DNA of 64,000 nucleotides, taken from NCBI GenBank assembly GCA_009392915.1, contig CP045477.1:256001-320000 (forward strand). Reading direction: 5' to 3'. Source of the DNA: Candidatus Forterrea multitransposorum CG_2015-17_Forterrea_25_41. GTDB lineage: Archaea; Iainarchaeota; Iainarchaeia; Iainarchaeales; CSSED10-239. Positions 8,801 to 49,604 of the stretch are shown here, one piece after another. Position numbers and translations under genes: made by a program. Numbering within the stretch: the stretch's first letter is position 1; each line of letters begins with the position of its first letter. The notes under the pieces were generated by a model. That model was not told the origin of the DNA, did no database searches, and saw only the letters and a list, made by a program, of their open reading frames with translations.

Positions 8801-10248
8801 AAGGAATTTATGGTGAAGACTTACCTTTAACTATTGATTATTTAGCAACAAATTCACATAGTAATATGTTTGCTTCAAGTGTTGATTTATCAAGTTATCA
8901 AGCAGAAGAAATCAATGAGTGTCAAGTTCCAGCAACAACTGCAAGATTTGATGGAACAAGTTATTTAGATATGTGGCTTAATAAAGAAATGTATCCTGAT
9001 AATGTTGTAGGTTCTGGTTGGTCTCAAACTGATATTACAAAACTTAAAGAACTTTTAGAGTTTGATGCATACTTAATAACAGATAATTATAATAGTAATT
9101 TTAAAAATGACTTTGATATGGCCTTCGGTGGTCTTGCTTCAAAAGAAGATGGAGCTGGAGCTGGAAATTATGCTATAATGTCTTCTCCAACTGTGTTTTC
9201 AAATGGTTATCTTTCTAAATTATTTAAAAACAATTTAATATTTACAAAAGAATATTCAAGTGAAGAAAATGTAAATATTAATGTTCCAGGAAAATATAAA
9301 ATTAAAATTGATTTATTATTTGAAAATGGTTCTTGGAATTTTTATGAAGGTGATGATCTAGATGTAAATGCATTTGTAACTTTTAGATTTATTTCTTCTC
9401 CAGAAACAGATAGTGTTTTCTATAGAATGCCATTTAATGGATTTGTTGGAAAAACAACTTCTGGATATGATAGACAAGGTTATGGTGTTTCTTACTTAGG
9501 AGATTCTATAAGAGTTGATAATGAAAATGTAATTACAGAAGAAGATTATGGTTCAAATTCATTAAGAACAATAACTGTTACAAAATCAAATGATCTTTCA
9601 AGAATTAATTCAAATATTGAAACAAGAGGTAATCTATTAAGTATTAAATATAATCAAACAGACAATGTAGATTTAATATTTACTCCAAGCACACCAATTC
9701 CTTTACTTATGAGTATTGATAAGAGTAATAATAGCCCTCTTAATGTGATTTATAGACTTAAAGATAAGAGTGGTAATGCTATTAGTTCAACTTCTTTATT
9801 AAGATGGACAGGTGTTGGTTCTGGTTGTGACTTTTCTGGTAATTCTATATATAATATGACTTATTATGATAGATATGCTGGAGATGAAGGTGCAGTTTCT
9901 GCATATGTAGTTGATTGGCCACAAGTCTTAAGAACAGGAAAAATATATTTAAGAACTGTTTTCTATAGTCCTGAAAGAGAGTCTTATTCTTTAGAGAATA
10001 GATCTGATCAAGGTGTTATGGTTAAGTTTTCAAAGAATGGAACTAATTATTCTTCTTCAGTTTCTTTAGGTGAAGATGATTTAACAGGCATTAAATCTAT
10101 TTCAGATGTATTTAATTTAATTAAAGATAATAAAGTATGTGTTGTAAATTCATATGATGGAAAAACTTCTGATTTCTTTTATAATCCTTCAGAAATTTTT
10201 ACAGAGAAGTTTACAAAACAACCTTCTGATTCTTTAGAATGTAGTTAA
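2848..10248 (+). CDS. Giant (2466 aa) membrane-anchored surface protein. It has an N-terminal signal-anchor TM, multiple carboxypeptidase-regulatory-like or transthyretin-like beta-sandwich repeats, an internal two-helix TM hairpin (aa ~1520-1575), and the conserved Cys-containing C-terminal module.
   Basis: Long uninterrupted ORF 15 nt after the previous gene, with an AGAGGG RBS-like motif. Hydrophobic segment LTSFFIFLLIILVVLYLIFG. Repeated ...GYxPxxxEL/... beta-sandwich-like units. Gly/Ala-rich hydrophobic hairpin AGGAIGIGIGTAAIVSLVLIMAKVAVLGSLLGPVGWIVAGLSIVVASIAPSFF. C-terminal motifs ECVTDTGRTGKTGEGAVPNISLNW, FYRMPFNGFVGK...RQGYGV, LLRWTGVGSGCDFSG, IYLRTVFYSP, NKVCVVNSYDG. Confidence 0.85.
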   Translation: MSFKDAWQNFLTKIDNRIPIKKITGPLDKKNPLTSFFIFLLIILVVLYLIFGSSITLNNQKLTEVTIRLADSDNNILDNFDFKIRNISDGITNSYVTNSSGSLTLELDLNKKYLLIIDSPNYELLEEEINLSLDSLNFIVTVLDTPINYLKTVYFEDALTNSLIEDSLNVTIRCDNGEIITPNTIDTQSGSVEINVPLECENIYASVRGDRYIEENLEMPITESTFKLESITEILESGRVSISVFSGEDIIQDSITIKIFSVDDSITPINTTQTTNGIGFFNSIPVGEYIVKASDVSNRYLQKQEQVTIIKNSLSEITFDLIDTDTDSPIIIDPDTNQEIVIREVTVFVKDKDSGEIIDSSFDPSVTLLLDGNENIEQRNLNEGFIFNISEDKSYSLKATAEGYIPGEIIPIISGKNTYIFNLEKITISNVSNLNITVQDEDLKPIVGLKSWIYDKDGQYIDPRFDFSTSDENGNIVFENIPDLNFTIKVKNSFIEETSSMYHNSPPEDTNITLPVEIGTGTVNLTVKNKLNDIVSNAQVTFYSESLEVLGSSFASSNGTLENDLKADKRIFIKIEADGYLPYFTELFRIYKNKTVTKEIILERENLSDDVSVEFLGLYNSLDTEVESLKNNEVFYFKFKAIMPVSSQHFNFVFRAGSFTSVTEDIVFIMPQNTSLGIPVYYENEPFNESGNYLESKLVDIEFLGYPASVHEITIPIRIKNAAINERVSFFYDSSINNIDFMSNNFNQLQYFIEATSLCGEDFCFSGQYVDVSQDLRYDISSNNLISTNIHSDYILEYQITNSSSNSFEDVRLSTRNLNNDDNPVAMININSYSISGEATSVGQTIEGENNFNIPFTGDEINLEKINPFSSINYTLNVTPLNLGQSKLTNRIISLQEEIYSLPINFSVSELETMEIDYEPKNIVPGLPFDLLVTVKDTQGEYLEGVNINILQKVRNEYITVSTGKTTDPQGNVIITLPSLRPGETFEIQAIKSKYFSQNVSFTIGTDILDVYSQEQILSSESPLEVFIHKTNINGETYSLTLKNKTNYALKINQFNTEDFSFNKSYLLNLEQTVNYLNNQITSQAEGFVIPANESKEIVIKFAPSDSARTHPVSEDILGAITGNYSLNNYDYRFTIPVKAKFSVGSGVLFDDCLVVTQSPGEWNTVVSTSTQTTSFTIKNTCLSKEGEVPIPIKNVQAKISSQADRYGVYFLNLIGPSSSNQIQLSENYYRVVIDQMAPEEEYRVDLTFNTNGTRFADVKTNIHLNAQVETEDGLSFVNKEPKDIFLKTNISIMNLNDCFSYIDQNGKVINSGGLYTLEGIEENELTIRNNCQGKATFKMNLCDAYDLGCNDLIITNTDEENNILRFSLNDSEKTVYIKKDSTKAPGAYILNNRVSVINNFERELASSFALLKINAKDPNGLWMEDPFIEINEDKVSEIKRLYNNNLEKTPWDYASYYQGEEGFGKFITNIYYTGNTWKKSFNQHWSRCIAGDDTCLFNGDNSLLSMRFLPENQLSNVGAEGLSAGGAIGIGIGTAAIVSLVLIMAKVAVLGSLLGPVGWIVAGLSIVVASIAPSFFSDYDVDVQPRFLDVSENNTIDNLVALKEISVDDLSDQKELINVFDITGARYFKYFNNVIFAHGKLASKKEIKSVLPKCNGINNLVPVDQFLKVYNKPPFCDEITIEETEDSYIYKTSCNGQKLNRLELNLFYSAYSICKSDETYWPEQAGIKPLQFNLTDEIYNLLDNDSKKYYFKKYEFNPTLDDSNSTQDLAFVDSDSVGNYRFGFFLTKPEETPNYDLSLQECVTDTGRTGKTGEGAVPNISLNWNWAETDCAQTYCDATQLTQDVLDRINDAEKLISSNVVQCPISNQELYDQALNGSYKVTAEPSDVINEIPVGKVGINSVKLDSQNNKLAIKVVLENRSDTPSSGTIVISLDDKQLESIKYRDVASGEYIEENIDYPGSYSKSITVPSGIDNTNEIIFVYKEGIYGEDLPLTIDYLATNSHSNMFASSVDLSSYQAEEINECQVPATTARFDGTSYLDMWLNKEMYPDNVVGSGWSQTDITKLKELLEFDAYLITDNYNSNFKNDFDMAFGGLASKEDGAGAGNYAIMSSPTVFSNGYLSKLFKNNLIFTKEYSSEENVNINVPGKYKIKIDLLFENGSWNFYEGDDLDVNAFVTFRFISSPETDSVFYRMPFNGFVGKTTSGYDRQGYGVSYLGDSIRVDNENVITEEDYGSNSLRTITVTKSNDLSRINSNIETRGNLLSIKYNQTDNVDLIFTPSTPIPLLMSIDKSNNSPLNVIYRLKDKSGNAISSTSLLRWTGVGSGCDFSGNSIYNMTYYDRYAGDEGAVSAYVVDWPQVLRTGKIYLRTVFYSPERESYSLENRSDQGVMVKFSKNGTNYSSSVSLGEDDLTGIKSISDVFNLIKDNKVCVVNSYDGKTSDFFYNPSEIFTEKFTKQPSDSLECS

Positions 10249-13133: not shown

Positions 13134-16100
13134 ATGTCAATATTTAAAAAATCAAGAGACAAAATAGAAGCAGAAAAGCTATATGCTCTTTTATCAGACA
13201 AAACTACAAACTATACTCTAGAGGATATTAAAGAGACTATTAAAAAACAAGGTTATTCTGATAAAGTTTCTTCAATTGTTGTAAAGATGATTACAGATAA
13301 TAAACTTCCTTTAAAAGATTCAGTTAATAAAACAAAAACAAAAGAAGAAGTCTTAAAAGAATTATCAGCTTCTGTTGATAAAAACTTCTCTAAACAAAAT
13401 CCAAAAGATTCTTCAAAAGATTCAAAAAAAGAAGATAAAAATAATCAAAAAGAAAATACAAAAAAACAAGAAGATATTAAAAAAGAAGATTCTAAAAAAC
13501 AAAAAGAAGATCTTAAAAAAACAAAAGAAACAAATTTAAAAAATATTAATAAAGTTCCTTTCTTTACAAAAGTAAAAACTTTCTTTAAAAGAATATATTT
13601 CTTTTTTGAAGATAATTACTATAAGATGGTTGATGGTGTAAGTAAAGTTATACCTCTAAACAAATTAACAGACAAAATAGATAAAGTTTTCCCAAGTTTC
13701 ATATTATTCTTATTAATCTTAGCTTTATTGATATATTTAATACTTTCAGGAAGTTTATCTTTCTCTAAAACTTGGACAGTTGCTGTAGAGGTTTATGACC
13801 CATCTTCTGTACCCTTAAAAGATGTTTCTGTAACTTTAATGCTTAAAGATGAAAATTTTTCAACTTTAAAAACAGATATTTTTGGTGAAGTTATTTTTAG
13901 TGATTTTAAATCTAGAAAACAAAATATTAATTTAATAGCTTCTAAAGATAATTATGATACAGTTGAACATTCCTTTAAATTAAGTAAAAGTAATTTAAGA
14001 CAAAAGTTATATCTTCCAACAGATGTAAATTCTAAGATTGATCCTTCAGAAGAAGAAGTAAGAGAAATTTCTTTTGTTGAAAATAATACTGTTTTAATAA
14101 CAGATTCTGTATTAACTACAAATTTTTCTTGTACTAATGCAGATGTAGAACCTAATCCTACAAGAAAAGTTATTTCTTCAGGAAAGGTAACAGTTACAAC
14201 TTATTCTGGTTGTGGTGCTTTAAGAGTTTCTGTAACTTCAGATGATTTTTCTTCAATTACAAATCAAGTTATAAATTCTTCAAATAAAGTAAATCTTACA
14301 AGAATTAATCTTGATAGAGGTAATTTAGGTTTCTCTGTTAAAAACATATCTGGAAGTTCAATTCCTGGAACAGAAGTTAAAGTTTATAGTTCTTCAAACA
14401 CTACTTTTCCTCATGATACAACCACAACTGATCTTTATGGTTTAGGTGAGTTTAGTTTAGAACCTAAAAGTTATTTTTTAACTTTCTCAAAAGAAGGTTA
14501 TCTAACAAATCCTTTAAAAGGTCCTTTAACTGTTATTAAAAATGATTCTGTAAACACAGATGTAGTTTTATTTACTTTAGATGATCTTTTAGAATTTGAT
14601 TGTTCTGATGATAAATATTCACAATTTTGTATTGCTGATGAAATTGATTGTTTTAATCCAAACTTAAAACCATTTTTAATAAATAATGCTGATGGTTCTT
14701 GTACAATTGGAAGACCAGGTTATATTTCTGTAACTTTAAAAGATGTTAATTCTGGAGAACCTGTATATGCAGATATAACTTTAGATTCAAAATTAAAAGA
14801 ATCTGATCAAAACTTTTCTCTTGGTGAACATATTGCAAGGGATACTAATTTCTATACTTTTAATGTTATTGATTTCTATAATTATAGAGTAAGAGTTTTA
14901 AATACAGAAGAGAGTGGTTATCTTCAACCAGATCCAGTCACTGTAAACGGTATTGATCAAAATATAACAGTTAATTTAGAATATTCTTCTTCCCTTAACT
15001 CAGGAGATATTTCAGTAAATGTTAAGAGTGCAGATATGCCTATCTCAAATGCAAGAGTTTATTTATATAAAGAGTTTGAAGATGATTTTGTTTTAGTAAA
15101 TTCTGATCCATTATTTACAAATCAAAATGGAGATGTTAATTTTTATTCTCAAAGAGCAAATAGAGATTATTATGCTTATGCTTTACATAATGTTTTAGAT
15201 AAACAAGGAACTTCACAAACAGATGATTTAGATGTTAACTCAATACTTGATTTATCAATAGATCTTGAAGATATTCCAAAGATATTAAATCTAAAGGTAA
15301 GTCCAAGTATTTCTTATGATATTAATTTTTATAATTCTTCAGATAATCTTGTAACTGAATATGTAAGAACAGATCTTGAAGATGGAAATTCTCTTTATTA
15401 TTTTACAGGTTCTATAAATAAAGTTTATGCAGTTGTTTCTTCTTCAGGTTATACTACCTATCAAACAGATTATATTACTTTAATACCTGATCAAGAAGTT
15501 TATAAAACAGTTAATCTTTCTACACTTTCTTCTTGTGAAGACTCTAAGTTAGAAATTTTAGGTCTTTATGATGGTTCTGGAGTTTTAGAAATTGATAATA
15601 TTGATTTTGTTGAAAATGATTTAGATAAAGAATACAGATTAAAGTTTAAATATATTTCATGTACAGAAGATGAAGAATACAATCAAGCTACTTTAAGACT
15701 TGGAAGACAAGGTTTAATAGATGATGAATATTTATTCTTTGTTTCAGATCAATTTACTTCTCAAGATATAGATGTTACAAGAGGTTATAAATTTTCACAA
15801 GAACATATACCTGACTTTAATTTTGATCTTTTCAATCTTAATTATTCTCAAGATAGATCTTATGATTATTCTGGTGAAGGTTATAAATGGATTGAAATTG
15901 ATTTTGAAAAATTAAATTCTGATATCTTAGAGTTTTCAACTAACTTTAAGTTCAGAGAAGATTCAATTGTTCCTTTTGAAAACTATGTTTTAAATTATAA
16001 ATCATTTGCAAGTATTTATGATGAACTTTATTCTTTTGATCCTGTTTTAAATGAATCTTGGACAGAGATACCAATCTATCCTAATGGTTATTTTTATGCA

Positions 16101-19100
16101 GAAACAAACAAATATTTAATACCTTTTGAAAATACAGATTATATTTATTCTGTAAAATTAAAAGACTGGAATCAAAATCTTTTAGAAGAATATGCTGGTG
16201 GTTATCCTGTATCTATTAATAATTTTTATAAATATGATCTAAGTTATTTATATTTAAATCAAACAGAAAGAAACGGTAGTGTTTTACAATCTTCTCAATA
16301 TACAAATAATAATTTAGATTATTTAAGTTATGGTTATACTTCATCTTTAGGTAACTCAAGTTCAGGAGATACTCAAAATGCTACAAATAACATGACTTCA
16401 TTTTTAATACTTCCAGATTATAATACTCTTCCAGGTTCAACAGATACTACTATAAATCAAGAAATCTATTATCATATTAATGTTGATGATTATAATTATT
16501 CTTTAGATGATATTAATGCAGAGATTGGTTATTATTTAAATACTTATACTCTTTTAGAGCCAAAAGGTTTTTTTGAAAATACTAATTTTTCAGATTCAAG
16601 TATTATTTCTGATGTTTTAGATGAGTACCCTTTAGTTAATACAAGTATTTATTCTTATTTATCTGATGAAAATTTTATATTTAATATTTCAACTAACTTT
16701 TCAGGAAACAGAATAATTATTGGTGAAAATAATTTAGGTTTTAAAGTTTTAGATAATTATGGTTCTCCAGTTTCAAATGTTTTAATAAAGTATAAAGTTG
16801 ATGGTGATGAGCTTATAACTTTAGGGTCTACAAATGAACAAGGTATGCTTAGTGATCAAAATATTTTTATAAATCTTTCAGATATTGGAAAAAATATTAA
16901 TTTTGTATTTTTGTTTTCTCCAGAGTTTGGTTTCCTTGCAAACACAGTTGTAAGAAACAAAGAAATCTATTCTGGATTTTCAATAGTTCCAGAAGATATT
17001 AATTTATCTGCAAGTTATTATATTTTAAATGATCAAGTTATAATTGATCAAGTTTCTACAAATAATTATAATCTTTTAAAAGAAACAAATTATTCAAGCA
17101 CTTTAGAAGAAATTGATTTTGTTGGAGAATCAAGTTTGTTTAATCTTGATTCTATTAAAAATAAAATGATTGAAGATAATAATCTTGTAAAAGATTTATT
17201 AGAAGGAGAAAATGAAATTATTACAAGTCTTTTCTTAAACAATAATATTTCTCAATCAACAAATCTTTTAGGTTATTATAGAAATGAAATTGATATTAAT
17301 AATTCTTTAACACAATTATTAGATATTAATTCAAATGTTGAAATTATTAATCTAGGTTCAATTAACTATGATTTTAATCTTGAAAAACATTTTATGAAAG
17401 GACTATTAATTGAAAACAATAATGTTTCTCTTGAGCTTATAAAAGAAATAAACGAATTAATTACTTTAGATTTAAATCTTTTATCAGATAACTCTCAAGC
17501 AACATTTGATAGTATTTCTGTAGAGCTTCCTGAATTTTTAGATCTTGAAGAATTTAATGAAGGTTATTCTTCTTTAGTTGGAGAGTCTTTAACTTCTGAT
17601 GGTTTAATAATTCCTCTTAACTTTAAGATTAATAACTCCTATTCAGGTTCTCTTCCAACTCCAAAGGAAGATATTAATTTAACTTTTAATGTTTATCTTG
17701 ATGATAAATTAGTTTCTTTTAATAAAATAATTTCAATAAAAGTATATTCTAAAGATGACATCTTTTTAATAGAGTCTGAAGGAGACTTACAGATCTATTG
17801 TACTGTTGAAAATTGTTCTCAAAAAAAATCTTTTACTTTTAAAAAATTAGTTAATAATTATATATTAAATCTAAATAAAGAAATTGAAATCAATGAGATG
17901 GATTTAATTGAAGTTTCAAATCTTTTAAGTAATATTAATTTTATTGACCTTTCTGAAAAGAACAGAGCTTTATCTTTTAGTGCCCTATATAATTCTGTTA
18001 ACGAAGAAAATAAACAAGGTAATTTTGATTTAATTTTTAATATTAATATTTTAAATGATTCTTTTAATATAGAAATACCTATTGATTATTTAATTATAAA
18101 ATATTTAGAAGAAGAAACCATAAGTGAAATTACTTTTAATTCCTGTATTGGTGTTGGTGGTCAAGAAAGCAGTAGTGATTTATTTATTTTAGGTTATTGT
18201 CAAGATACCCAAGATACTTGTAAAACAGGAGAATCTGCTGTTCCAAAAGTATTTTTTAATTGGGCAGAATCTGACCTTTCAACAGATTATGACGGAAAAA
18301 CCTGGAATAATGTCTGTATTGGTAATAGCCAAGATACAATGTCAAGTAAATATGCTTGTGATTCCTTACAAATGTTAATTTCAATTTTTAATAAAATTGA
18401 TAATGGTGTAGAAGAATCATTCTATATTAAACTTTTAAATGATGGAATTTCTGATGCTCTTTTAAAAGATTTTATAAATTATAATACACTTTACTTAGGT
18501 TATGATAAACCTAGTGAAGAGATCTTTTCAGAAGATGCAGTTGATGATGGTTTATTTAAAATAACAATTAATAATTCTCCAGAAATTAAAATTTTCCAAC
18601 CTGGTATCTATAAAGTTTTAGTATATGGTGATGATTCAGGAAATGCATATATGGGAAGAGAAGAAGATCAAATGATAGATATACGTCTAGAAAAGGTAAG
18701 TGATCTTCCTGCATCAGAGATAAGTGTATTCCACTATATGCCATTTAATGGTAATTTAGGTTTAGATGGTACAAGAGAGGGTTACGGTATTAAAAATCAA
18801 GATAGTGATGTTGCTCAATTAACTCAAGATGTTGATATTAATTATATTGATGTTATAGATGAAATAATTCAACTATCTTTAACTAATAATAATCTAGAAA
18901 CTTCTCACTTAACACAAACATTAAAGTCTGAAGGAAAAATACTTGAATTAAATAAATATGATAGTGTTGTTGAAATGATTTATTCTCCTTCATATCCAGT
19001 ACCAATATATTCTCATGTAGCATGTATTGATAAAGATGATTTTAGTTATAATCTTTATGAAAATAATAATGCTTTAGATAATATTATAGGTGGATCATTT

Positions 19101-19577
19101 ATTGATTGGAATTTTAATAATACCATAAGATCAGATGTTAAAACAACAGTAACAGGAGATGTTACTAGATACGTATTTAACAATAATAATTTAGAAGGTT
19201 CTTTAAACCTTAATTCAATGTTATATCTTCCTGTAAAATTAAATATTGATTCTTTAAAACTTAAAACCACAGAGTTTGCAAATAATAAAAATACAACTTT
19301 ATTTACAAAGAATAATTTTACAGGTGTAAATCAAGCAGATTTAGTTTTCTCTGAAGATGATTATGTTCTTGGAAATGATTTAATAAACCTTAATACTATT
19401 AAAGGTTTATTTAATTTTATAAGTCAAGAAAAAGCATGTATTGAAAAATCTATTGATAACACAACTATTAAATGGATTGATGAAAAAGTTAATTTTACAG
19501 AACAAGAATTACTTGATATAAATAGTAATATTCCTTCTGATTATTCTTGTCTTGAAGGAGAGGTAATCATAGATTAA
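13134..19577 (+). CDS. Giant (2147 aa) membrane-anchored surface protein. A ~185-aa Lys/Glu-rich N-terminal region precedes a single TM; beta-sandwich repeats and the shared C-terminal module follow.
   Basis: ORF begins 23 nt after the previous gene. KE-rich low-complexity N-terminus. TM segment FPSFILFLLILALLIYLILSG. Repeats of the ...KEGYLTNP / ...DxxGxVxF type. C-terminal motifs GYCQDTQDTCKTGESAVPKVFFNW, FHYMPFNGNLGLDGTREGYGI, EKACIEKSIDN. The true start could instead be the internal Met just before the TM (MVDGVSKV...). Confidence 0.8.
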   Translation: MSIFKKSRDKIEAEKLYALLSDKTTNYTLEDIKETIKKQGYSDKVSSIVVKMITDNKLPLKDSVNKTKTKEEVLKELSASVDKNFSKQNPKDSSKDSKKEDKNNQKENTKKQEDIKKEDSKKQKEDLKKTKETNLKNINKVPFFTKVKTFFKRIYFFFEDNYYKMVDGVSKVIPLNKLTDKIDKVFPSFILFLLILALLIYLILSGSLSFSKTWTVAVEVYDPSSVPLKDVSVTLMLKDENFSTLKTDIFGEVIFSDFKSRKQNINLIASKDNYDTVEHSFKLSKSNLRQKLYLPTDVNSKIDPSEEEVREISFVENNTVLITDSVLTTNFSCTNADVEPNPTRKVISSGKVTVTTYSGCGALRVSVTSDDFSSITNQVINSSNKVNLTRINLDRGNLGFSVKNISGSSIPGTEVKVYSSSNTTFPHDTTTTDLYGLGEFSLEPKSYFLTFSKEGYLTNPLKGPLTVIKNDSVNTDVVLFTLDDLLEFDCSDDKYSQFCIADEIDCFNPNLKPFLINNADGSCTIGRPGYISVTLKDVNSGEPVYADITLDSKLKESDQNFSLGEHIARDTNFYTFNVIDFYNYRVRVLNTEESGYLQPDPVTVNGIDQNITVNLEYSSSLNSGDISVNVKSADMPISNARVYLYKEFEDDFVLVNSDPLFTNQNGDVNFYSQRANRDYYAYALHNVLDKQGTSQTDDLDVNSILDLSIDLEDIPKILNLKVSPSISYDINFYNSSDNLVTEYVRTDLEDGNSLYYFTGSINKVYAVVSSSGYTTYQTDYITLIPDQEVYKTVNLSTLSSCEDSKLEILGLYDGSGVLEIDNIDFVENDLDKEYRLKFKYISCTEDEEYNQATLRLGRQGLIDDEYLFFVSDQFTSQDIDVTRGYKFSQEHIPDFNFDLFNLNYSQDRSYDYSGEGYKWIEIDFEKLNSDILEFSTNFKFREDSIVPFENYVLNYKSFASIYDELYSFDPVLNESWTEIPIYPNGYFYAETNKYLIPFENTDYIYSVKLKDWNQNLLEEYAGGYPVSINNFYKYDLSYLYLNQTERNGSVLQSSQYTNNNLDYLSYGYTSSLGNSSSGDTQNATNNMTSFLILPDYNTLPGSTDTTINQEIYYHINVDDYNYSLDDINAEIGYYLNTYTLLEPKGFFENTNFSDSSIISDVLDEYPLVNTSIYSYLSDENFIFNISTNFSGNRIIIGENNLGFKVLDNYGSPVSNVLIKYKVDGDELITLGSTNEQGMLSDQNIFINLSDIGKNINFVFLFSPEFGFLANTVVRNKEIYSGFSIVPEDINLSASYYILNDQVIIDQVSTNNYNLLKETNYSSTLEEIDFVGESSLFNLDSIKNKMIEDNNLVKDLLEGENEIITSLFLNNNISQSTNLLGYYRNEIDINNSLTQLLDINSNVEIINLGSINYDFNLEKHFMKGLLIENNNVSLELIKEINELITLDLNLLSDNSQATFDSISVELPEFLDLEEFNEGYSSLVGESLTSDGLIIPLNFKINNSYSGSLPTPKEDINLTFNVYLDDKLVSFNKIISIKVYSKDDIFLIESEGDLQIYCTVENCSQKKSFTFKKLVNNYILNLNKEIEINEMDLIEVSNLLSNINFIDLSEKNRALSFSALYNSVNEENKQGNFDLIFNINILNDSFNIEIPIDYLIIKYLEEETISEITFNSCIGVGGQESSSDLFILGYCQDTQDTCKTGESAVPKVFFNWAESDLSTDYDGKTWNNVCIGNSQDTMSSKYACDSLQMLISIFNKIDNGVEESFYIKLLNDGISDALLKDFINYNTLYLGYDKPSEEIFSEDAVDDGLFKITINNSPEIKIFQPGIYKVLVYGDDSGNAYMGREEDQMIDIRLEKVSDLPASEISVFHYMPFNGNLGLDGTREGYGIKNQDSDVAQLTQDVDINYIDVIDEIIQLSLTNNNLETSHLTQTLKSEGKILELNKYDSVVEMIYSPSYPVPIYSHVACIDKDDFSYNLYENNNALDNIIGGSFIDWNFNNTIRSDVKTTVTGDVTRYVFNNNNLEGSLNLNSMLYLPVKLNIDSLKLKTTEFANNKNTTLFTKNNFTGVNQADLVFSEDDYVLGNDLINLNTIKGLFNFISQEKACIEKSIDNTTIKWIDEKVNFTEQELLDINSNIPSDYSCLEGEVIID

Positions 19578-20507: not shown

Positions 20508-20777
20508 ATGAATAAAAGTACTTTAATAGAAGCTGTTGTTAAGAAAACAGATTTATCAAAAGCAAAAGCTGAAGAGTTTATTAATACAACTTTAGAAGCT
20601 ATGAAAGTAATTGTAAAAAAAGAAGGTAAATTACAATTAGTTGGTTTTGGTACATTCAAAGTTAAAAAAAGAGCTGCTAGAATGGGTAGAAATCCACAAA
20701 CAGGAAAATCTATGAAAATAGCTGCTAGTAAAACAGTTTCATTCAAAGTTGGTAAAGAATTTAAAGAGAGATTATAA
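20508..20777 (+). CDS. Bacterial-type DNA-binding protein HU (DNABII family), 89 aa.
   Basis: Protein MNKSTLIEAVVKKTDLSKAKAEEFINTTLEAMKVIVKKEGKLQLVGFGTFKVKKRAARMGRNPQTGKSMKIAASKTVSFKVGKEFKERL shows the HU signature (GFGTF, RxxRxGRNPxTG, beta-arm). Strong SD-like AAGGGGG sits 7 nt upstream of the ATG. Confidence 0.85.
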   Translation: MNKSTLIEAVVKKTDLSKAKAEEFINTTLEAMKVIVKKEGKLQLVGFGTFKVKKRAARMGRNPQTGKSMKIAASKTVSFKVGKEFKERL

Positions 20778-44031: not shown

Positions 44032-44787
44032 ATGACTAGATTTAAAAATACTTTAAAAAAGTTATTACCAGATAGACTTAGATATGGAAAAGGCTATGTT
44101 CTTGAAAATAAAATGTCTAAAGTTTCAACTTCTTATAATATTAAAGAATATAATATAAATTATTTAAAAGAAGTTAATAATTTTTATAAAACATTTAGAC
44201 TAGATTCTAAAAAATATTCTCTTTCTAAAACTAATTTTAAAGCTTTAAGAAATAAAGACTCAAGAGAGCTTGTTGTTAGAGGAGTTTATTCTCTTTTTAA
44301 ATCTTTTAATGTTTCTGATGAATTAATTTTAAAAAGATTTCCAAATAAAACAAAAAAAGAAAGAGAGCTTATTAAAAATAAGTTATATAATCAGAAATAT
44401 CCTAAACTTGCAAGTGAAGTTATTGAAAGTATTAATTTATTTTTAAAAACTAGAAAACAAGAAATGCAACCAAGATACTTAGAAAAATTTGCAGAAATTT
44501 TTTATGAACTTAATCTTTTAAAAGAAAAAGAAAATTTAAGAATTGAAGGAAATAAATTTTTTTTAGAAGTTTTTAATAAACTTAATGAAATCACAAAACA
44601 AGAAAATAATTCTCAAAAAATAAACAATTCAACTCCTGCTTATGATTATTTATCTTCAATTTCTGGAGATTTTATTGAATTTGTAATTAGAAGTAGAAGT
44701 AATAATAAAAATAAATATGTAACTGTTAAAGAATTTAAAAAAGAACAATTTTCTTTAGATAGAATTAAAAAATATAGTGTTAGGTAA
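44032..44787 (+). CDS. Hypothetical protein (251 aa) inserted between rps7 and fusA.
   Basis: ORF with K/N-rich composition and no recognised motif. Confidence 0.4.
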   Translation: MTRFKNTLKKLLPDRLRYGKGYVLENKMSKVSTSYNIKEYNINYLKEVNNFYKTFRLDSKKYSLSKTNFKALRNKDSRELVVRGVYSLFKSFNVSDELILKRFPNKTKKERELIKNKLYNQKYPKLASEVIESINLFLKTRKQEMQPRYLEKFAEIFYELNLLKEKENLRIEGNKFFLEVFNKLNEITKQENNSQKINNSTPAYDYLSSISGDFIEFVIRSRSNNKNKYVTVKEFKKEQFSLDRIKKYSVR

Positions 44788-44821
44788 ATTTTATAATAAT
44801 TTTTAAAAGAAAAGAAAAATC

Positions 44822-45451
44822 ATGCAAAAAGATAATAACTGGGATAATATTTATTCTTCTGTAAAGAATCTTAAAAAACTTCCTTGGGTAAGAACCACAA
44901 TACCAGAGTGGTTTAAACTAATAATTAATTCTAAATGGATAGCCCCTTGTAAAACATTAGATGTTGGGTGTGGAAATGGTTATTTTTCATATTATCTTTC
45001 AAAAAAAGGCTTTAAAGTTACAGGTATTGATGTTTCAAAAGAAATTATTATTTATGCAAAAAAATCTTATCCTCAAAGTAATAATCTAAAATTTATTGTG
45101 TCTAATTTTTTTAATAAAGAAACTCTTTCTGAAAAATATAATTTTATTTTAGATATTGGACTTTTCCATAATATCTTACCAGAGAAAAGAAAAGAATTTT
45201 CAAAAAGACTTTCAGAGCTTCTTTTTGATAAAGGTAAGGTTTTAATCTTTTGTTTTGATAAAAGAGAAGGTACTTTTGAGAATAAAGAAATATACTTTAA
45301 TTCATTAATTAACATGTATTCATATCCTCTTTCAAAAGAAGAAATAATTAAAACTTTTAGTAAAGATTTTATTATTGAAAAAATAGAAGAAATAAGACAT
45401 GGTACAAATAATTATAAAAGACGTTATCTTTGTTTTTTAATTAAAAAATAA
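44822..45451 (+). CDS. Class I SAM-dependent methyltransferase (TPMT/TehB-like, small).
   Basis: Motif I LDVGCGNGYFSYYLSKKGFKVTGIDVS. Motif II/post-I region FILDIGLFHNI. N-terminal Trp-containing segment typical of TPMT-like enzymes. Confidence 0.65.
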   Translation: MQKDNNWDNIYSSVKNLKKLPWVRTTIPEWFKLIINSKWIAPCKTLDVGCGNGYFSYYLSKKGFKVTGIDVSKEIIIYAKKSYPQSNNLKFIVSNFFNKETLSEKYNFILDIGLFHNILPEKRKEFSKRLSELLFDKGKVLIFCFDKREGTFENKEIYFNSLINMYSYPLSKEEIIKTFSKDFIIEKIEEIRHGTNNYKRRYLCFLIKK

Positions 45452-45644: not shown

Positions 45645-47843
45645 ATGGGAAGAAAAGAACAAGTTGCTGAGCTTGCAGAAAAGCTTATGGCAAATACAAA
45701 AAATATTAGAAATATTGCAATTATTGCACACATTGATCATGGAAAATCTACTTTAACAGACAATTTAGTTGCAACTGCTGGTTTAATTTCAAAAGATTTA
45801 GCAGGAGAACAAAGATTCATGGATTCATATGTTTTAGAACAAGAAAGAGGAATTACAATTAATTCTGCAAACGTTTCTGTTCCATGTGATATTGATGGTG
45901 AAAAATTTTTAATAAATATTATTGATACACCAGGTCACGTTGATTTCACTGGTGATGTTATAAGAGCGATGAGAGCTGTTGATGGTGCTGTTTTAGTTGT
46001 TGATGCTGTTGAAGGTGTTATGCCACAAACAGAAACTGTATTAAGACAAGCTTTAAGAGAAAAAGTAAAACCTGTACTTTTTATTAATAAAGTTGATAGA
46101 TTAATTACAGAAATGCATGTAACTCCAGAAGATATGCAAAAGAAATTTGTTAAAGTTGTAATGGATATTAATAATTTAATTGCAAAAAATGCTCCTGAAG
46201 AATTCAGAAAAGATTGGTTAGTAAATATTGCAGATGGTTCTGTATGTTTTGGTTCTGGTTTCCATAATTGGTCTCTTTCAGTTCCTGCTATGAAAAAATA
46301 TAATGTAACTTTTAAAGATGTTATTGAGTATGCAGAAAATGAAAAACAAAAAGAACTTGCAGATAAAATTCCAATTTCAGAAGTTTTCTTAGGAATGGTT
46401 GCAAAACATCTTCCTGATCCAAAGACTTCTCAAAAATATAGAATCCCAACTATTTGGAAAGGAGATCCTGAATCCCCAGAAGGAAAAGCAATGTCTGAAT
46501 GTAATACTACATCAGAAGAAGTTTCAATGATGGTAACTGATATTGTTTTAGATAAACATGCAGGAGATATTGCTTCTGGAAGAATTTATTCTGGATCAAT
46601 TAAAAAAGGAATGGATTTAAAAGTTTTAGGAACAGATAGAACAACTAAAGTTCAATATGTTGGTATTTATTTAGGTCCTGAAAGAGTTATTTTAGATGAA
46701 GTAAAATCTGGAAATATTGCTGCAATTATTGGACTTAAAGAAGTTTATGCTGGTCAAACAATTGCAAGTCACGATATTGTTCCATTTGAAGATTTCATGT
46801 CAGATGTTGAACCAGTAATGACTGTTTCTGTTGAAGCTAAAAATTCAAAAGATCTTCCAAGATTAATTCAAGTTATTCATAATATAACTAAAGAAGATCC
46901 AAACATAAAAGCTGAATTAAATCAAGATACAGGAGAACATCTTTTATCAGGTATGGGTGAACTTCACTTAGAAATTACACAATACAAGATTGAAAAAGAT
47001 AATAATATTCCAATAACTGTTTCACCACCAATTGTTGTTTACTATGAAACAACAACACAAGAATCTCCAGTTGTTGAAGGAAAGACTCCAAACAAACACA
47101 ATAAATTTAAAGTTAGAGTTGAACCAATCTCTTCAGAAATGCTTGAAAAAATTAGAAAAATTAAGTTTACTGGAAAGATAAGACCTAACAAAGATTTAGA
47201 TATTATTAAAAAATTACAAGAAGCAGGATTTGATGTTGACGAATCAAAGAATGTTTGGGCAATCAATAATCATTCAATTTTAATTAATAGAACAAAAGGA
47301 ATACAAAACTTAAATGAAGTTAGAGAACTTATAATTGAAGGATTTACAGATGCTACAAATGAAGGTCCTGTTGCTAAAGAAAAAGTATCTGGAATTATTG
47401 TTTCTCTTGAAGATGCAACATTACACGAAGATGCAATCCACAGAGGTCCTGCACAAGTTCTTCCTGCAATAACAAGAGCAATATATGCTGGTGTACTTGC
47501 TGGTAACTATGTTCTTTTAGAACCAAAACAAAGTTTAACTGTTTCAGTTCCTCAAGATTTTATGGGTTCTGTTTCTAAAGTTTTATCTTCAAGAAGAGCA
47601 CAAATTGAAGATATTAAAACAGAAGGAGATTCTTCAATTTTTATTAGTAAGATTCCTGTAAAATCAATGATTGGTTTCTCACAAGAGATGAGAGGAGAAA
47701 CACAAGGTAGAGCTGTTTGGACTGCTGAATATTTTGGTTATGAACAACTTCCAAAAAGTATGCTTAAAGACACAATCATAGATATTAGAAAAAGAAAAGG
47801 TATGGATCCTGAACCAAAACCTGCTGAGTTTTTCATGGATTAA
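45645..47843 (+). CDS. fusA: Translation elongation factor 2 (aEF-2).
   Basis: G-domain motifs AHIDHGKST, DTPGHVDF, NKVDR. Domain IV diphthamide-site His in AIHRGPAQ. SD-like AAAGGTGAAAG upstream. Confidence 0.95.
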   Translation: MGRKEQVAELAEKLMANTKNIRNIAIIAHIDHGKSTLTDNLVATAGLISKDLAGEQRFMDSYVLEQERGITINSANVSVPCDIDGEKFLINIIDTPGHVDFTGDVIRAMRAVDGAVLVVDAVEGVMPQTETVLRQALREKVKPVLFINKVDRLITEMHVTPEDMQKKFVKVVMDINNLIAKNAPEEFRKDWLVNIADGSVCFGSGFHNWSLSVPAMKKYNVTFKDVIEYAENEKQKELADKIPISEVFLGMVAKHLPDPKTSQKYRIPTIWKGDPESPEGKAMSECNTTSEEVSMMVTDIVLDKHAGDIASGRIYSGSIKKGMDLKVLGTDRTTKVQYVGIYLGPERVILDEVKSGNIAAIIGLKEVYAGQTIASHDIVPFEDFMSDVEPVMTVSVEAKNSKDLPRLIQVIHNITKEDPNIKAELNQDTGEHLLSGMGELHLEITQYKIEKDNNIPITVSPPIVVYYETTTQESPVVEGKTPNKHNKFKVRVEPISSEMLEKIRKIKFTGKIRPNKDLDIIKKLQEAGFDVDESKNVWAINNHSILINRTKGIQNLNEVRELIIEGFTDATNEGPVAKEKVSGIIVSLEDATLHEDAIHRGPAQVLPAITRAIYAGVLAGNYVLLEPKQSLTVSVPQDFMGSVSKVLSSRRAQIEDIKTEGDSSIFISKIPVKSMIGFSQEMRGETQGRAVWTAEYFGYEQLPKSMLKDTIIDIRKRKGMDPEPKPAEFFMD

Positions 47844-47872
47844 TTTTTCTTTTTCTTTTTTCTTTTATTTTT

Positions 47873-47925
47873 TTGTCCTTCTTTATATCTAGGACAAAGC
47901 TTCTTTTTTTCTTTTCTTTTTCTTT
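47873..47925 (+). terminator. Hairpin TTGTCCT-N11-AGGACAA followed by a T-rich run after fusA.
   Basis: Read directly. AGCTTCTTTTTTTCTTTTCTTTTTC follows the stem. Confidence 0.5.
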
Positions 47926-48106
47926 AAAACTATTTGTTTTATAATATTCTTCAAACTTTTTCTTGTTTTATTATTTGGACAGTTTATTTTTTTTATTAAA
48001 AATAATTATTTTTAAAAAATATATAACATTTATAAATGTTTACATCTACAGTATATAATATATTTTATTATTCTGCTTTTGCAGAAAAATTGGAGGGAGA
48101 AAAAAA

Positions 48107-48346
48107 ATGGCTGTAAAAAAGAAAGTAGTTGCAAAAAAAGCACCTGCTAAAAAAGCTGTTGTTAAGAAAAAAGCACCTGTTAAAAAAGTAGTTGCTAAAA
48201 AAGCACCAGCTAAAAAAGTAGTTGCAAAAAAAGCACCTGCTAAAAAAGCTGTTGTTAAAAAAGCACCTGCTAAAAAAGTAGTTGCTAAAAAAGCACCAGC
48301 TAAAAAAGTAGTTAAAAAGAAAGCACCTGCTAAAAAGAAAAAATAG
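48107..48346 (+). CDS. Lys/Ala-rich tandem-repeat basic protein (79 aa), with about 6 copies of the KKAPAKKVVA repeat. Histone-H1-tail-like or Hc1-like candidate nucleoid protein.
   Basis: Strong SD GGAGGGAG 8 nt upstream. Protein consists almost entirely of AKKAPAKK(A/V)VV units. 30-nt periodicity at the DNA level. Confidence 0.7.
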   Translation: MAVKKKVVAKKAPAKKAVVKKKAPVKKVVAKKAPAKKVVAKKAPAKKAVVKKAPAKKVVAKKAPAKKVVKKKAPAKKKK

Positions 48347-48476
48347 GTGTCATCTTTATTTAATAACTATTTTATTTTAATAAGTCTTTTTTTATAAAAG
48401 GCTTATTTTTTCTATTTTTTTAATATTTTCTTTTAAAAAATATATTTAAATACCTTAATATCTATCTATATATATC

Positions 48477-49604
48477 ATGATTAAAAATATAACTTTATTA
48501 GGTTCAAATAATGATATTGGTATTAAGACAATTGAGTTTTTAAAAAACAATACTAATAAGTTTAAAATCTATTCTCTTTCTTATGACTCTAAGGTAGATA
48601 ATCTTGATTTTTTTATATCTCAAATAAAAGATGTTTCTCCAAAGAAAGTTTTTATACCTTTAGAAAAAGATGCTGAATATATAGAATCTAAAACTAAGGT
48701 TGAGATAATTACAGGTACTGAAAATTTTCCTGAGTTTATAAAATCAAATGAAATTGATCAAGTAATTTCTTCTTTATCAGGACTTTCAAGTGTTAAAAAA
48801 ATATTATCAACTATTTATGAGTTTAAAGATATTACTTTACTTAATACATCTCCTTTTCTATATTGTGGAAGAATAATTACAAATGAAGTTAAATCAAAAG
48901 GAGTAAATTTTAATATTTTTTCATATCCAGTTTATTCTTTAGATTTTATTTTAAAATCTTCAAATATTAATTTTATTAAAAATATTAATTTATTTACAAA
49001 ACAAAAAAACAAAAAAGAAAAAATAACTATTAATGATTATAAAGATTTTGGAAGTTATCTTAAAGCATATTATTCTGAAAATAATATAAGACTTGTAAAT
49101 GATATGTTTATTATTTATTATTTATATAATATTCCAATAGATAATTTTAATTTTTATGAACAATCAGAAAGAATAATAAATATTGAAATAAAATTTTTAA
49201 ATGGTACAAGTGTTTTCTTTAAAGCAAATCTAGATATAGATAGTATTTTTAATTATTATTTTTTAGATAATGAAAAAATAGTTGAAAATAAAGAAAAAGA
49301 TCTTGATAAAATATCTTTTTCATATAAAAAAATAGATCCAACTAAAGAAAAGTTTTTAAGTTTAGGTATAGAAACTTTAAAAAAAGGTGGTTCTTTTCCA
49401 ATAATCTATTATATAACAATTGAAACATTACTTTATTATATTTATAAAAGAAAAATTAAAGAAAACATAGATATTTATAAAATTGTTAAAGAATTTTTAG
49501 AAGACAAAACACTTTATGATAAATTCCCTGATTTAAGTTCTGTTTATGCTATTGATAATAAGATAAATGAAAAAATCAAAAATAAATTTAATATTAAAAA
49601 CTAA
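48477..49604 (+). CDS. Dxr (1-deoxy-D-xylulose-5-phosphate reductoisomerase)-fold homolog with degenerate NADPH-binding and catalytic residues. Probable non-catalytic or repurposed Dxr-like protein.
   Basis: N-terminal 160 aa are colinear with bacterial Dxr. ITLLGSNNDIG matches ILGSTGSIG. DQVISSLSGLSSVKKILSTI matches DxVxAIVGAAGLxPTLAAI. KDITLLNTSPFLYCGRII matches KTILLANKESLVTCGRLF. IFSYPVYSLDFIL matches LLPVDSEHNAIFQSL. Spacing is conserved (LLNTSP at aa 121-126). The comparison is from memory of E. coli Dxr, not a database search. Confidence 0.5.
   Translation: MIKNITLLGSNNDIGIKTIEFLKNNTNKFKIYSLSYDSKVDNLDFFISQIKDVSPKKVFIPLEKDAEYIESKTKVEIITGTENFPEFIKSNEIDQVISSLSGLSSVKKILSTIYEFKDITLLNTSPFLYCGRIITNEVKSKGVNFNIFSYPVYSLDFILKSSNINFIKNINLFTKQKNKKEKITINDYKDFGSYLKAYYSENNIRLVNDMFIIYYLYNIPIDNFNFYEQSERIINIEIKFLNGTSVFFKANLDIDSIFNYYFLDNEKIVENKEKDLDKISFSYKKIDPTKEKFLSLGIETLKKGGSFPIIYYITIETLLYYIYKRKIKENIDIYKIVKEFLEDKTLYDKFPDLSSVYAIDNKINEKIKNKFNIKN

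Follow-up and report, generated by a model that had tools for sequence, protein, structure and literature searches.

A lysine-rich mini-ORF upstream of a DXR-like gene in Candidatus Forterrea multitransposorum and its putative micro-gene family in Iainarchaeota

The stretch analyzed here (the window) comprises 64,000 nucleotides of the 25% G+C genome of Candidatus Forterrea multitransposorum, a DPANN archaeon of the Iainarchaeota (assembly GCA_009392915.1, contig CP045477.1, positions 256,001 to 320,000). An ATG-initiated open reading frame (ORF) at 48107..48346(+), situated between the gene for archaeal elongation factor 2 (aEF-2) and a gene related to DXP reductoisomerase (DXR-like gene), encodes a product of 79 amino acids (aa), MAVKKKVVAKKAPAKKAVVKKKAPVKKVVAKKAPAKKVVAKKAPAKKAVVKKAPAKKVVAKKAPAKKVVKKKAPAKKKK, with the location and length given in a preliminary description of this DNA. 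Apart from the initiator Met, the product consists solely of 35 Lys (44%), 20 Ala (25%), 16 Val (20%), and 7 Pro (9%), and it contains neither acidic nor aromatic residues. Its mass is 8.3 kDa, its net charge +34.5, and its pI 11.53, in agreement with the value above 11 that had been expected. Most of the ORF is occupied by a tandem array with a period of 30 nt at 48122..48336(+), for which Tandem Repeats Finder reported 7.1 copies, 83% matches, and a score of 298. The 30-nt unit encodes 10 aa, and from residue 3 onwards the protein alternates between the pentads KKAPA and KKVVA. The ten-residue Lys/Ala/Pro/Val repeats of the preliminary description were thus recovered, while their number has to be corrected from about six to about seven.

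The window contains 1204 ATG-initiated ORFs of 8-150 aa, and only this one passed a filter on Lys/Ala/Pro/Val composition, which speaks against a by-product of an AT-rich genome. The ORF is a genuine gene and not a chance product of AT-richness, and its orthologs, in-frame indels, and AAG placement are described below. AlphaFold2 predicted no secondary structure for the 79-aa protein, with a predicted local distance difference test score (pLDDT) of 63 and a predicted template modeling score (pTM) of 0.12; by this prediction the protein is an intrinsically disordered polycation without a fold.

The ORF is preceded by a Shine-Dalgarno (SD) sequence, GGAGGGAG, at 48092..48099(+), 7 nt 5' of the ATG. 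With a duplex energy of -10.4 kcal/mol against the anti-SD, it was the second strongest of 45 window genes, which upholds the earlier statement that the SD ranks among the strongest in the window. Further upstream, a promoter-like element ACATTTATAAATGTTTA at 48026..48042(+) contains the TATA-like box TTTATAAA at 48029-48036, approximately 71 nt 5' of the ATG. TATA-to-start geometry is a general property of archaeal promoters, and by this geometry a 5' untranslated region (UTR) of about 45-50 nt is predicted. Between the predicted transcription start site and the SD, a palindrome able to form a hairpin, TTCTGC-TTTT-GCAGAA, occurs at 48071..48086(+) and is followed by an A-rich spacer, the G-rich SD, and the ORF.

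Terminators were assessed by folding against 200 shuffled controls. Upstream of the ORF, a hairpin with a 9-bp stem at 47871-47899 followed by a T-run reached -9.0 kcal/mol (z=-4.5, 0/200 shuffles as good), and downstream of it, a 12-bp hairpin at 48379-48407 followed by T-runs reached -10.3 kcal/mol (z=-6.5). The former (47871..47910(+)) appears as the terminator-like end of the upstream aEF-2 gene, which would isolate the transcription unit of the ORF, and the latter (48379..48419(+)) as the terminator-like 3' end of its own transcript. A strict consensus terminator scan reported no terminators at the flanks of the ORF, as the scan demands at least three G-C pairs and both hairpins are AT-rich. 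Rfam covariance models gave no match at E<=1 in 47800-48520. The position between terminators proposed in the preliminary description was therefore recovered in the form of these two structures. Taken together, the signals point to an independently transcribed, monocistronic, and efficiently translated gene, for which we infer high expression.

Orthologs were collected by synteny in place of sequence similarity, as the protein-search matches described below were treated as convergent. The comparison covered 23 genome loci located via EF-2 and 27 metagenome loci located via alignment of the DXR-like protein (designated L with a number), and clades A-D were defined from a neighbor-joining tree of the DXR-like protein. 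The closest relatives of the aEF-2 of the window were found in metagenome-assembled genomes labelled Candidatus Iainarchaeum, Diapherotrites or archaeon, with identities of 77-99%. Every locus whose sequence reached far enough upstream had a Lys-rich ORF ahead of the DXR-like gene. A composition scan of both strands of the 332 kb of fetched loci identified 47 ORFs, all of them in the same slot and on the same strand, with zero matches outside the orthologous slot. All 47 carried GGAGG, GGGAG or GGGGG within 22 nt upstream as well as an ATG and a stop codon in the Lys frame, and the distance between the mini-ORF and the DXR-like gene was 69-132 nt, the window included.

The lengths of the family members spanned 10-85 aa, an eight-fold range, and the commonest members were 10-25 aa long. 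Clade A, to which the window belongs, comprised ORFs of 79, 78, 68, 42, 70, 80, 77, 79, 72, and 56 aa, and clade C ORFs of 74, 58, 41, and 34 aa. Clade D contained only forms of 10-23 aa, such as MAKKKKAKKK, MAAKKKKAKKK, MAAKKKKAAKKK, and MAAKKKKAAAKKPAAKKKK, while each locus of clade B carried two tandem copies (26+11, 19+12, 16+11, 18+10, and 17+12 aa). The duplicated units of clade B (L008 2758-3119, L034 1012-1380, L036 1032-1377, L038 1034-1358, and L039 74-515) were approximately 300 nt apart; an SD of its own preceded every copy, and most copies also had a TATA-like box as well as a hairpin or T-run. The upstream regions of both copies in L039 were identical, which suggests a recent duplication.

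Charge density, composition (Lys, small or β-branched aliphatics, and Pro), and expression signals were conserved across the family, which had no conserved length, register or motif beyond an M-A/V-x-KKK start and a terminal Lys run. Lys accounted for 45-70% of the residues in the short members of 10-25 aa, Pro was present in most forms of the family, and Ile took the place of Val in L030. The common denominator of the family is thus a predicted short polycation. The short forms of 10-25 aa (M-A/V-x-KKK...KKKK) probably resemble the ancestral state, and the 79-aa ORF is, as judged by synteny, a lineage-specific, repeat-expanded version of a conserved Iainarchaeota micro-gene. The search for homologs that had been proposed at the outset gave 47 ORFs by synteny, whereas the database matches proved convergent.

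The expression signals described for the window recurred at the other loci. In an upstream alignment anchored at the ATG, most loci compared had a box of the form (A/G)C(A/T)TTTATA(A/T)AT(G/C)T approximately 60-75 nt before the ATG, with GCTTTATATATCT as the version of clade D. The box was 100% identical in close relatives and not evident in, for example, the second copy of L008. The UTR hairpin occurred at the matching position in clades A-C with differing stems (CTGC/GCAG, CTGT/ACAG, TTCTT/AAGAA, and TTTGCAAA); its energy alone was not significant (z=-1.3 vs shuffles), and the recurring pairing was judged by eye, the MAFFT alignment of the 5' UTRs not being structure-aware enough for a count of covariation. 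A hairpin followed by a T-run was located 3' of the ORF in most orthologs, and only T-rich sequence and weak folds were found in a minority (e.g., L005, L017, L050, and the second copies of L008, L034, and L036).

A further motif, TTGGACA(A), recurred two to five times in the spacer between EF-2 and the mini-ORF in many relatives (L011, L013, L016, L021, L022, and L008), and it occurs in this spacer of the window at 47975-47981. In clade D, one copy lay between a few and about 15 nt upstream of the TATA box of the mini-ORF. In the whole window 16 copies were counted against 7.1±2.5 expected, 14 of the 16 on the + strand, and the motif may represent a transcription-factor site.

Repeat numbers changed between close relatives, as had been predicted. 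Among the near-identical strains represented by the window, L018, and L028, with products of 79, 78, and 68 aa, the ORF differed by one 3-nt and one 30-nt indel. All indels among the three were in frame, substitutions were few and mostly synonymous or V/A, and promoter, UTR, and terminator sequences were nearly identical. Other differences between relatives amounted to 70 vs 80, 34 vs 41, and 19 vs 21 aa. The repeat period was 27, 30, 33, 45, 48 or 51 nt depending on the lineage, and all of these repeats encoded KK(A/V/P/I)3-like peptides. Since the periods differ and the encoded peptides are alike, the expansions of the ORF in clades A and C are independent and convergent in their product. 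Some of the arrays were 98-100% identical at the DNA level and are therefore recent. The preliminary description had named absence or frameshifting of the ORF in close relatives as evidence against a gene; the ORF was intact and in frame in every relative.

Codon use pointed in the same direction as the indels. Lys was encoded by AAA in 89% and by AAG in 11% of cases in the large genes of the window. The ORF contained four AAG among its 35 Lys codons, all placed inside KKK or KKKK runs, and its longest A-run was 7 nt; when the Lys codons were shuffled, a run this short was obtained in 1 of 10,000 trials (P≈1e-4). Across 32 distinct orthologs, AAG made up 46% of the Lys codons in K-runs of at least three and 26% in shorter runs, and the longest A-run in any of them was at most 9 nt. 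Long A-runs provoke slippage of both polymerase and ribosome, and their avoidance indicates that the reading frame matters and that the ORF is translated. Codon pattern and in-frame indels together argue that the peptide is made and selected.

The window forms part of the JGI contig Ga0100381_1000002 (663,621 bp), the largest of this reduced genome. The gene order around the ORF is as follows: an L7Ae-family protein, an 86-aa ORF, S12, S7, a 251-aa protein of unknown function, a methyltransferase, aEF-2 (TIGR00490, 975 bits), the mini-ORF, the DXR-like gene, and a D-aminoacyl-tRNA deacylase on the opposite strand. The DXR-like gene (48477..49604(+)) was the invariable downstream neighbor of the mini-ORF. 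Genes had been inserted after EF-2 in L009, L010, and L014, and the mini-ORF remained just upstream of the DXR-like gene in these loci; this linkage was read directly for L010, which shares a contig with L046, and via mini-ORFs matching L036 and L045 for L009 and L014. Since the mini-ORF stays with the DXR-like gene after insertions, the DXR-like gene rather than EF-2 is its conserved partner.

The DXR-like gene had no SD (-0.6 kcal/mol vs the anti-SD) and carried a TATA-like box of its own, TATATTTAAATA, at 48441..48452(+), approximately 30 nt 5' of its ATG. A box of the form (C/A)TTTTAAA(A/G) was conserved at about -24 to -33 of this ATG in most loci compared. As a TATA-like box at about -30 and a missing SD correspond to archaeal promoter geometry, the DXR-like gene is probably a separate, leaderless transcription unit. 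Its protein was related to DXP reductoisomerase in a profile search against the PDB (1e-23), and its conservation reached down to 30% identity. In place of the NADPH motif GSxGSIG it has GSNNDIG, and the region aligned to the metal-binding DSEH has no acidic residues, for which reasons it is probably not a DXR enzyme. A homolog of DXR in an archaeon is unexpected in itself. The DXR-like gene is treated here as context for the ORF rather than as a functionally connected gene.

The proteins of the family were largely missing from protein resources. Neither the query nor its orthologs were returned from the protein libraries searched, and an exact-sequence cluster look-up was also without the protein, while a gene-position index placed the identical protein in 58 blocks of an assembly collection. 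Forms below 30 aa fall under the usual limits of gene callers, and the family is effectively invisible to standard annotation.

Profile comparisons of the 79-aa protein gave scores below the respective cut-offs. The highest was reached by Pfam HC2 (PF07382) with 35.4 bits against a cut-off of 40, in a low-complexity alignment driven by composition, followed by the NCBIfam model for Burkholderia/Bordetella H1-like proteins (NF038053) with 33.7 bits against an equivalog cut-off of 80 and the NCBIfam model for Hc2 (NF038052) with 21.7 bits against 135. The Pfam scan contained no Linker_histone match and only the sub-threshold HC2. An exhaustive HMMER search of 1.84 billion representatives resulted in 319 matches at E<=1e-3. 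These and the matches of a word-indexed search were mostly KKAPAKK-type K/A/P tails on longer, unrelated proteins, including 4-oxalocrotonate tautomerase (4-OT), L30, SWIB, DUF2934, and proteins adjoining or overlapping DksA genes, and no pure polycation was found among them. Some of the matches overlapping DksA may be frameshifted gene calls. Both matches whose context was checked were located in bacterial-type neighborhoods, and the database "homologs" were rejected as true relatives and regarded as convergent tails on unrelated bacterial domains. A sequence search of the PDB with the 79-aa form gave only an insignificant low-complexity match to SigA, and the 23-aa ortholog gave none.

Membership in the Hc1, Hc2, AlgP or H1 families was likewise rejected, given scores below the cut-offs and the lack of a globular or N-terminal domain. 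The preliminary description had compared the repeats to H1, Hc1, and AlgP; this likeness stands for composition, which resembles that of the H1 tail or Hc2, and not for family membership. As a functional class, an H1-like tail agrees with what was observed: Lys, Ala, and Pro (with Val) exceed 70%, acidic residues are absent, the pI lies above 11, and disorder is predicted. Heuristics for candidate archaeal nucleoid-associated proteins name small size, basic character, a single-gene operon, and very high abundance (10.1101/2021.07.08.451601), and the 79-aa protein is small, basic, and encoded by an apparent single-gene operon.

The C-terminal domain of H1 binds and condenses DNA by charge. It shares with the 79-aa protein a disordered Lys/Ala/Pro-rich sequence with a pI above 11, periodic K-K-x-x-x units, and the lack of sequence-specific features. 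In contrast to H1, the 79-aa protein has no winged-helix globular domain and no Ser/Thr phosphorylation motifs, contains 20% Val, stands alone, and has kin of 10 aa. The best reading of this comparison is that the protein would be analogous, and not homologous, to the H1 tail. Chlamydial Hc2 (HctB) and the Burkholderia/Bordetella H1-like proteins, which condense bacterial nucleoids, were the best profile matches and have KKA/P-type repeats in common with it, but the similarity is compositional, and domain of life, length range, and genomic context differ.

Tandem Lys/Pro/Ala repeats and disorder are also features of Pseudomonas AlgP and PhaF, and the repeat number varies between isolates for AlgP and between close strains here. 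Unlike the ORF product, which consists of repeats only, AlgP/PhaF have a folded N-terminal domain that provides specificity for polyphosphate or polyhydroxyalkanoate granules, and their repeat unit is 4 aa, compared to 10 aa (two pentads) here. DNA binding has been described for KPAA peptides of AlgP, whose repeat domain is a hot spot of rearrangement and repeat number between isolates; the tail associates with polyphosphate granules, and the composition of the H1 tail has been compared with that of AlgP-type tails, H1-type sequences being stated to be of bacterial origin (PMC9239181). The closely spaced lysines make AlgP-type proteins nearly invisible to tryptic proteomics (PMC9239181). More generally, Lys-rich low-complexity regions are tied to DNA and RNA binding and are frequent in ribosomal proteins (PMC6821194).

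Actinobacterial HU (HupB/Hlp, HupS), Ku, and Streptomyces DdbA are described with PAKKA/AKKA or H1-like tails that enhance non-specific DNA binding (PMC3553676, PMC3643593). The kind of Lys/Ala/Pro tail is the same, but it is covalently fused to a DNA-binding fold in these proteins, whereas here it is encoded on its own, 27 kb away from HU. A bacterial-type HU gene was indeed identified at 20508-20777(+), in accordance with the coexistence stated in the preliminary description; it encodes 89 aa, lies between tRNA-Arg and tRNA-His, and was matched by phmmer to E. coli HupA with E=4e-24. Its strong SD, AAGGGGGAA, resembles the SDs of the mini-ORFs. By analogy, the tail-less HU and the 79-aa protein could act in trans as an equivalent of a tailed HU. 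No histone or Alba homolog was found within the 64-kb window, and histones have been reported for Diapherotrites in general (PMC6136690).

The account favored here, which we judge to stand at about an even chance, is that the product is a highly expressed polycation that coats and condenses nucleic acid, its most likely target being the chromosome, which it would share with HU. Given the absence of a fold, the conservation of only charge and composition, and the eight-fold variation in length, its activity would most likely be non-specific and electrostatic. A disordered polycation would bind nucleic acid multivalently by charge, neutralizing and condensing it. The most probable target would be the chromosome, bound alongside HU in the manner of the H1 tail, the KPAA domain of AlgP/PhaF, or the actinobacterial HU tail. 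The dose of polycation would have been tuned in evolution by strong promoter and SD signals, by tandem duplication of whole units in clade B, and by slippage-driven repeat expansion in clades A and C. The evolutionary pattern can be read as selection on dose, with clade D having one short copy, clade B carrying the complete unit twice in tandem, and clades A and C having expanded the ORF independently of each other. A putative role in the nucleoid is the leading interpretation of the product.

Several observations weigh against this account. The commonest members of the family, at 10-13 aa, are shorter than any recognized nucleoid protein, and the term "chromatin protein" may fit only the expanded forms. 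The second chromatin protein proposed in the preliminary description was in this respect too specific, as the ORF forms the expanded end of a micro-ORF family with commonest members of 10-25 aa. A generic nucleoid role leaves the strict linkage to the DXR-like gene unexplained, and 20% Val (or the Ile of L030) is atypical for H1-type tails. The gene is located at the edge of the S12-S7-EF-2 translation cluster, which would equally suit an RNA or ribosome partner, and the protein libraries searched were without these ORFs.

The position next to a translation cluster is also the starting point for a different assignment, according to which the product would be an RNA- or ribosome-associated basic peptide that binds rRNA or other RNA, as a ribosomal or extra-ribosomal polycation similar to eL41/eS32, bTHX, or ribosomal-protein tails rich in Lys. 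The gene lies downstream of S12, S7, two further genes, and aEF-2, and the short forms of 10-25 aa are of the same size class as eL41, for which solved ribosomes show 22-41 aa. Size and charge density of these forms are comparable to those of eL41/eS32, protamines, and bTHX. The bacterial matches include L30 proteins with the same kind of tail, and ribosomal proteins often contain Lys-rich low-complexity regions (PMC6821194). Unlike eL41/eS32 and the other small basic peptides, however, the family is Lys- and not Arg-rich, has no Trp, is unconstrained in length, and shows no sequence similarity to them; it lacks the conserved eL41 pattern MRxKWRKKRxRRLKRKRRK, and most of its forms contain Pro. 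A yeast eL41 query retrieved archaeal and eukaryotic eL41 chains from the PDB, whereas the 79-aa and 23-aa forms retrieved no ribosomal protein. A stoichiometric site on the ribosome would hardly tolerate lengths of 10-85 aa, changes between strains (79/78/68), and tandem duplication of the gene, and where genes have been inserted after EF-2, it is the DXR-like gene, not the translation cluster, that the mini-ORF accompanies. No eL41-like or other Arg/Lys-rich mini-ORF was detected when the window was scanned, which is uninformative since 64 kb of the genome only were covered. On balance an RNA or ribosome partner is considered unlikely.

Somewhat less probable again is a polyanion partner other than nucleic acid, such as polyphosphate in the case of AlgP, or an encoded oligolysine that would replace polyamines in a reduced genome. 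The predicted product is purely charge-based and tolerant of length, the KPAA tail of AlgP localizes to polyphosphate granules (PMC9239181), and duplication and expansion would fit a bulk counter-ion. Nothing at the locus points to polyphosphate, however, and the proposal overlaps with a polycation on the chromosome without the two being mutually exclusive.

The fixed position of the mini-ORF could also be read as that of a cis-acting leader peptide or attenuator, which would sense Lys-tRNA or ribosome speed and control read-through into the DXR-like gene. Mini-ORF and DXR-like gene always share a strand and lie 69-132 nt apart, the mini-ORF coming first and a terminator hairpin usually separating the two, and most forms are very short and conserved in composition alone, as leader peptides are. 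Against this, a conserved TATA-like box of its own precedes the ATG of the DXR-like gene by about 30 nt, this gene has no SD, and the tandem copies of clade B each have an SD and mostly a TATA-like box and a hairpin or T-run of their own. The promoter-like box of the DXR-like gene and the duplication of the unit led us to regard a leader function as improbable. An expansion to approximately 80 aa with conserved repeats would moreover be pointless for a leader, and the codons avoid rather than enrich stall-prone, slippery A-runs. A non-coding, AT-rich simple repeat with a spurious ORF, as might be thought from the ease with which a genome of 25% G+C generates AAA-rich repeats, from alternative repeat frames that are also open in some relatives, and from the protein libraries without the ORF, is very improbable and already contradicted by ATG, SD, and stop in the Lys frame of 47/47 orthologs, by the lack of such ORFs elsewhere in the 332 kb or among the 1204 ATG-ORFs of the window, by in-frame indels between close relatives, by non-random AAG placement, and by the lack of an Rfam match.

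New in this comparison are a stand-alone, fold-less version of an H1-like tail in an archaeon, a micro-ORF family with members down to 10 residues, and the documentation of its recurrent duplication and expansion. Lys/Ala/Pro-rich H1-like tails are known from eukaryotes and bacteria, nearly always on a folded domain, while here the tail alone forms its own, strongly signalled gene, and the products of one conserved locus grade continuously from an oligolysine of 10 residues into a repeat protein of 85. No description of an archaeal or DPANN Lys-rich microprotein or H1-like protein was found in the literature covered, which was incomplete, so that this is an absence of evidence only.

If the product coats the chromosome, it would be a new fold-less component of archaeal chromatin in a lineage that also uses a bacterial-type HU, and the family would offer a natural series for how much the length of a polycation matters. 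As an RNA or ribosome partner or a surrogate for polyamines, it would represent an unusual solution in a reduced genome. Either way, it belongs to a concrete, conserved micro-ORF family unseen by standard annotation, protein databases, and tryptic proteomics. As a more far-reaching and tentative proposal, to which we give well under an even chance, Iainarchaeota might carry a hitherto unannotated class of strongly expressed genes for oligolysines as short as 10 residues (MAKKKKAKKK), serving as bulk polycations that supplement or replace polyamines and histone tails and neutralize DNA and RNA, with the dose set by duplication or by expansion to about 85 residues. If this were true, oligolysine genes would be systematically missed by gene callers for their size (below 30 aa), by protein databases for their low complexity, and by tryptic proteomics.

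Some further features of the neighborhood were noted. At 44032-45451(+), the 251-aa protein, for which no Pfam match was obtained, and the methyltransferase, of the class-I S-adenosylmethionine-dependent type, are placed between S7 and aEF-2 in an otherwise canonical str-type cluster. EF-1alpha, which follows EF-2 in the outgroup locus L025, and S10, which follows EF-2 in the outgroup locus L019, are absent here. Directly after EF-2, at 6196-6300 of L013, a direct repeat of about 50 nt (TTAAAGTCATTTTTGACTTTAAGATGCAGA..AAATATTTTATTTTTCT) was found with a palindromic hairpin in each copy, and similar hairpin pairs occurred at the same position in L021 and L022. Two giant ORFs at 2848-10248 and 13134-19577(+), encoding 2466 and 2147 aa, respectively, are present in the window of this reduced genome.

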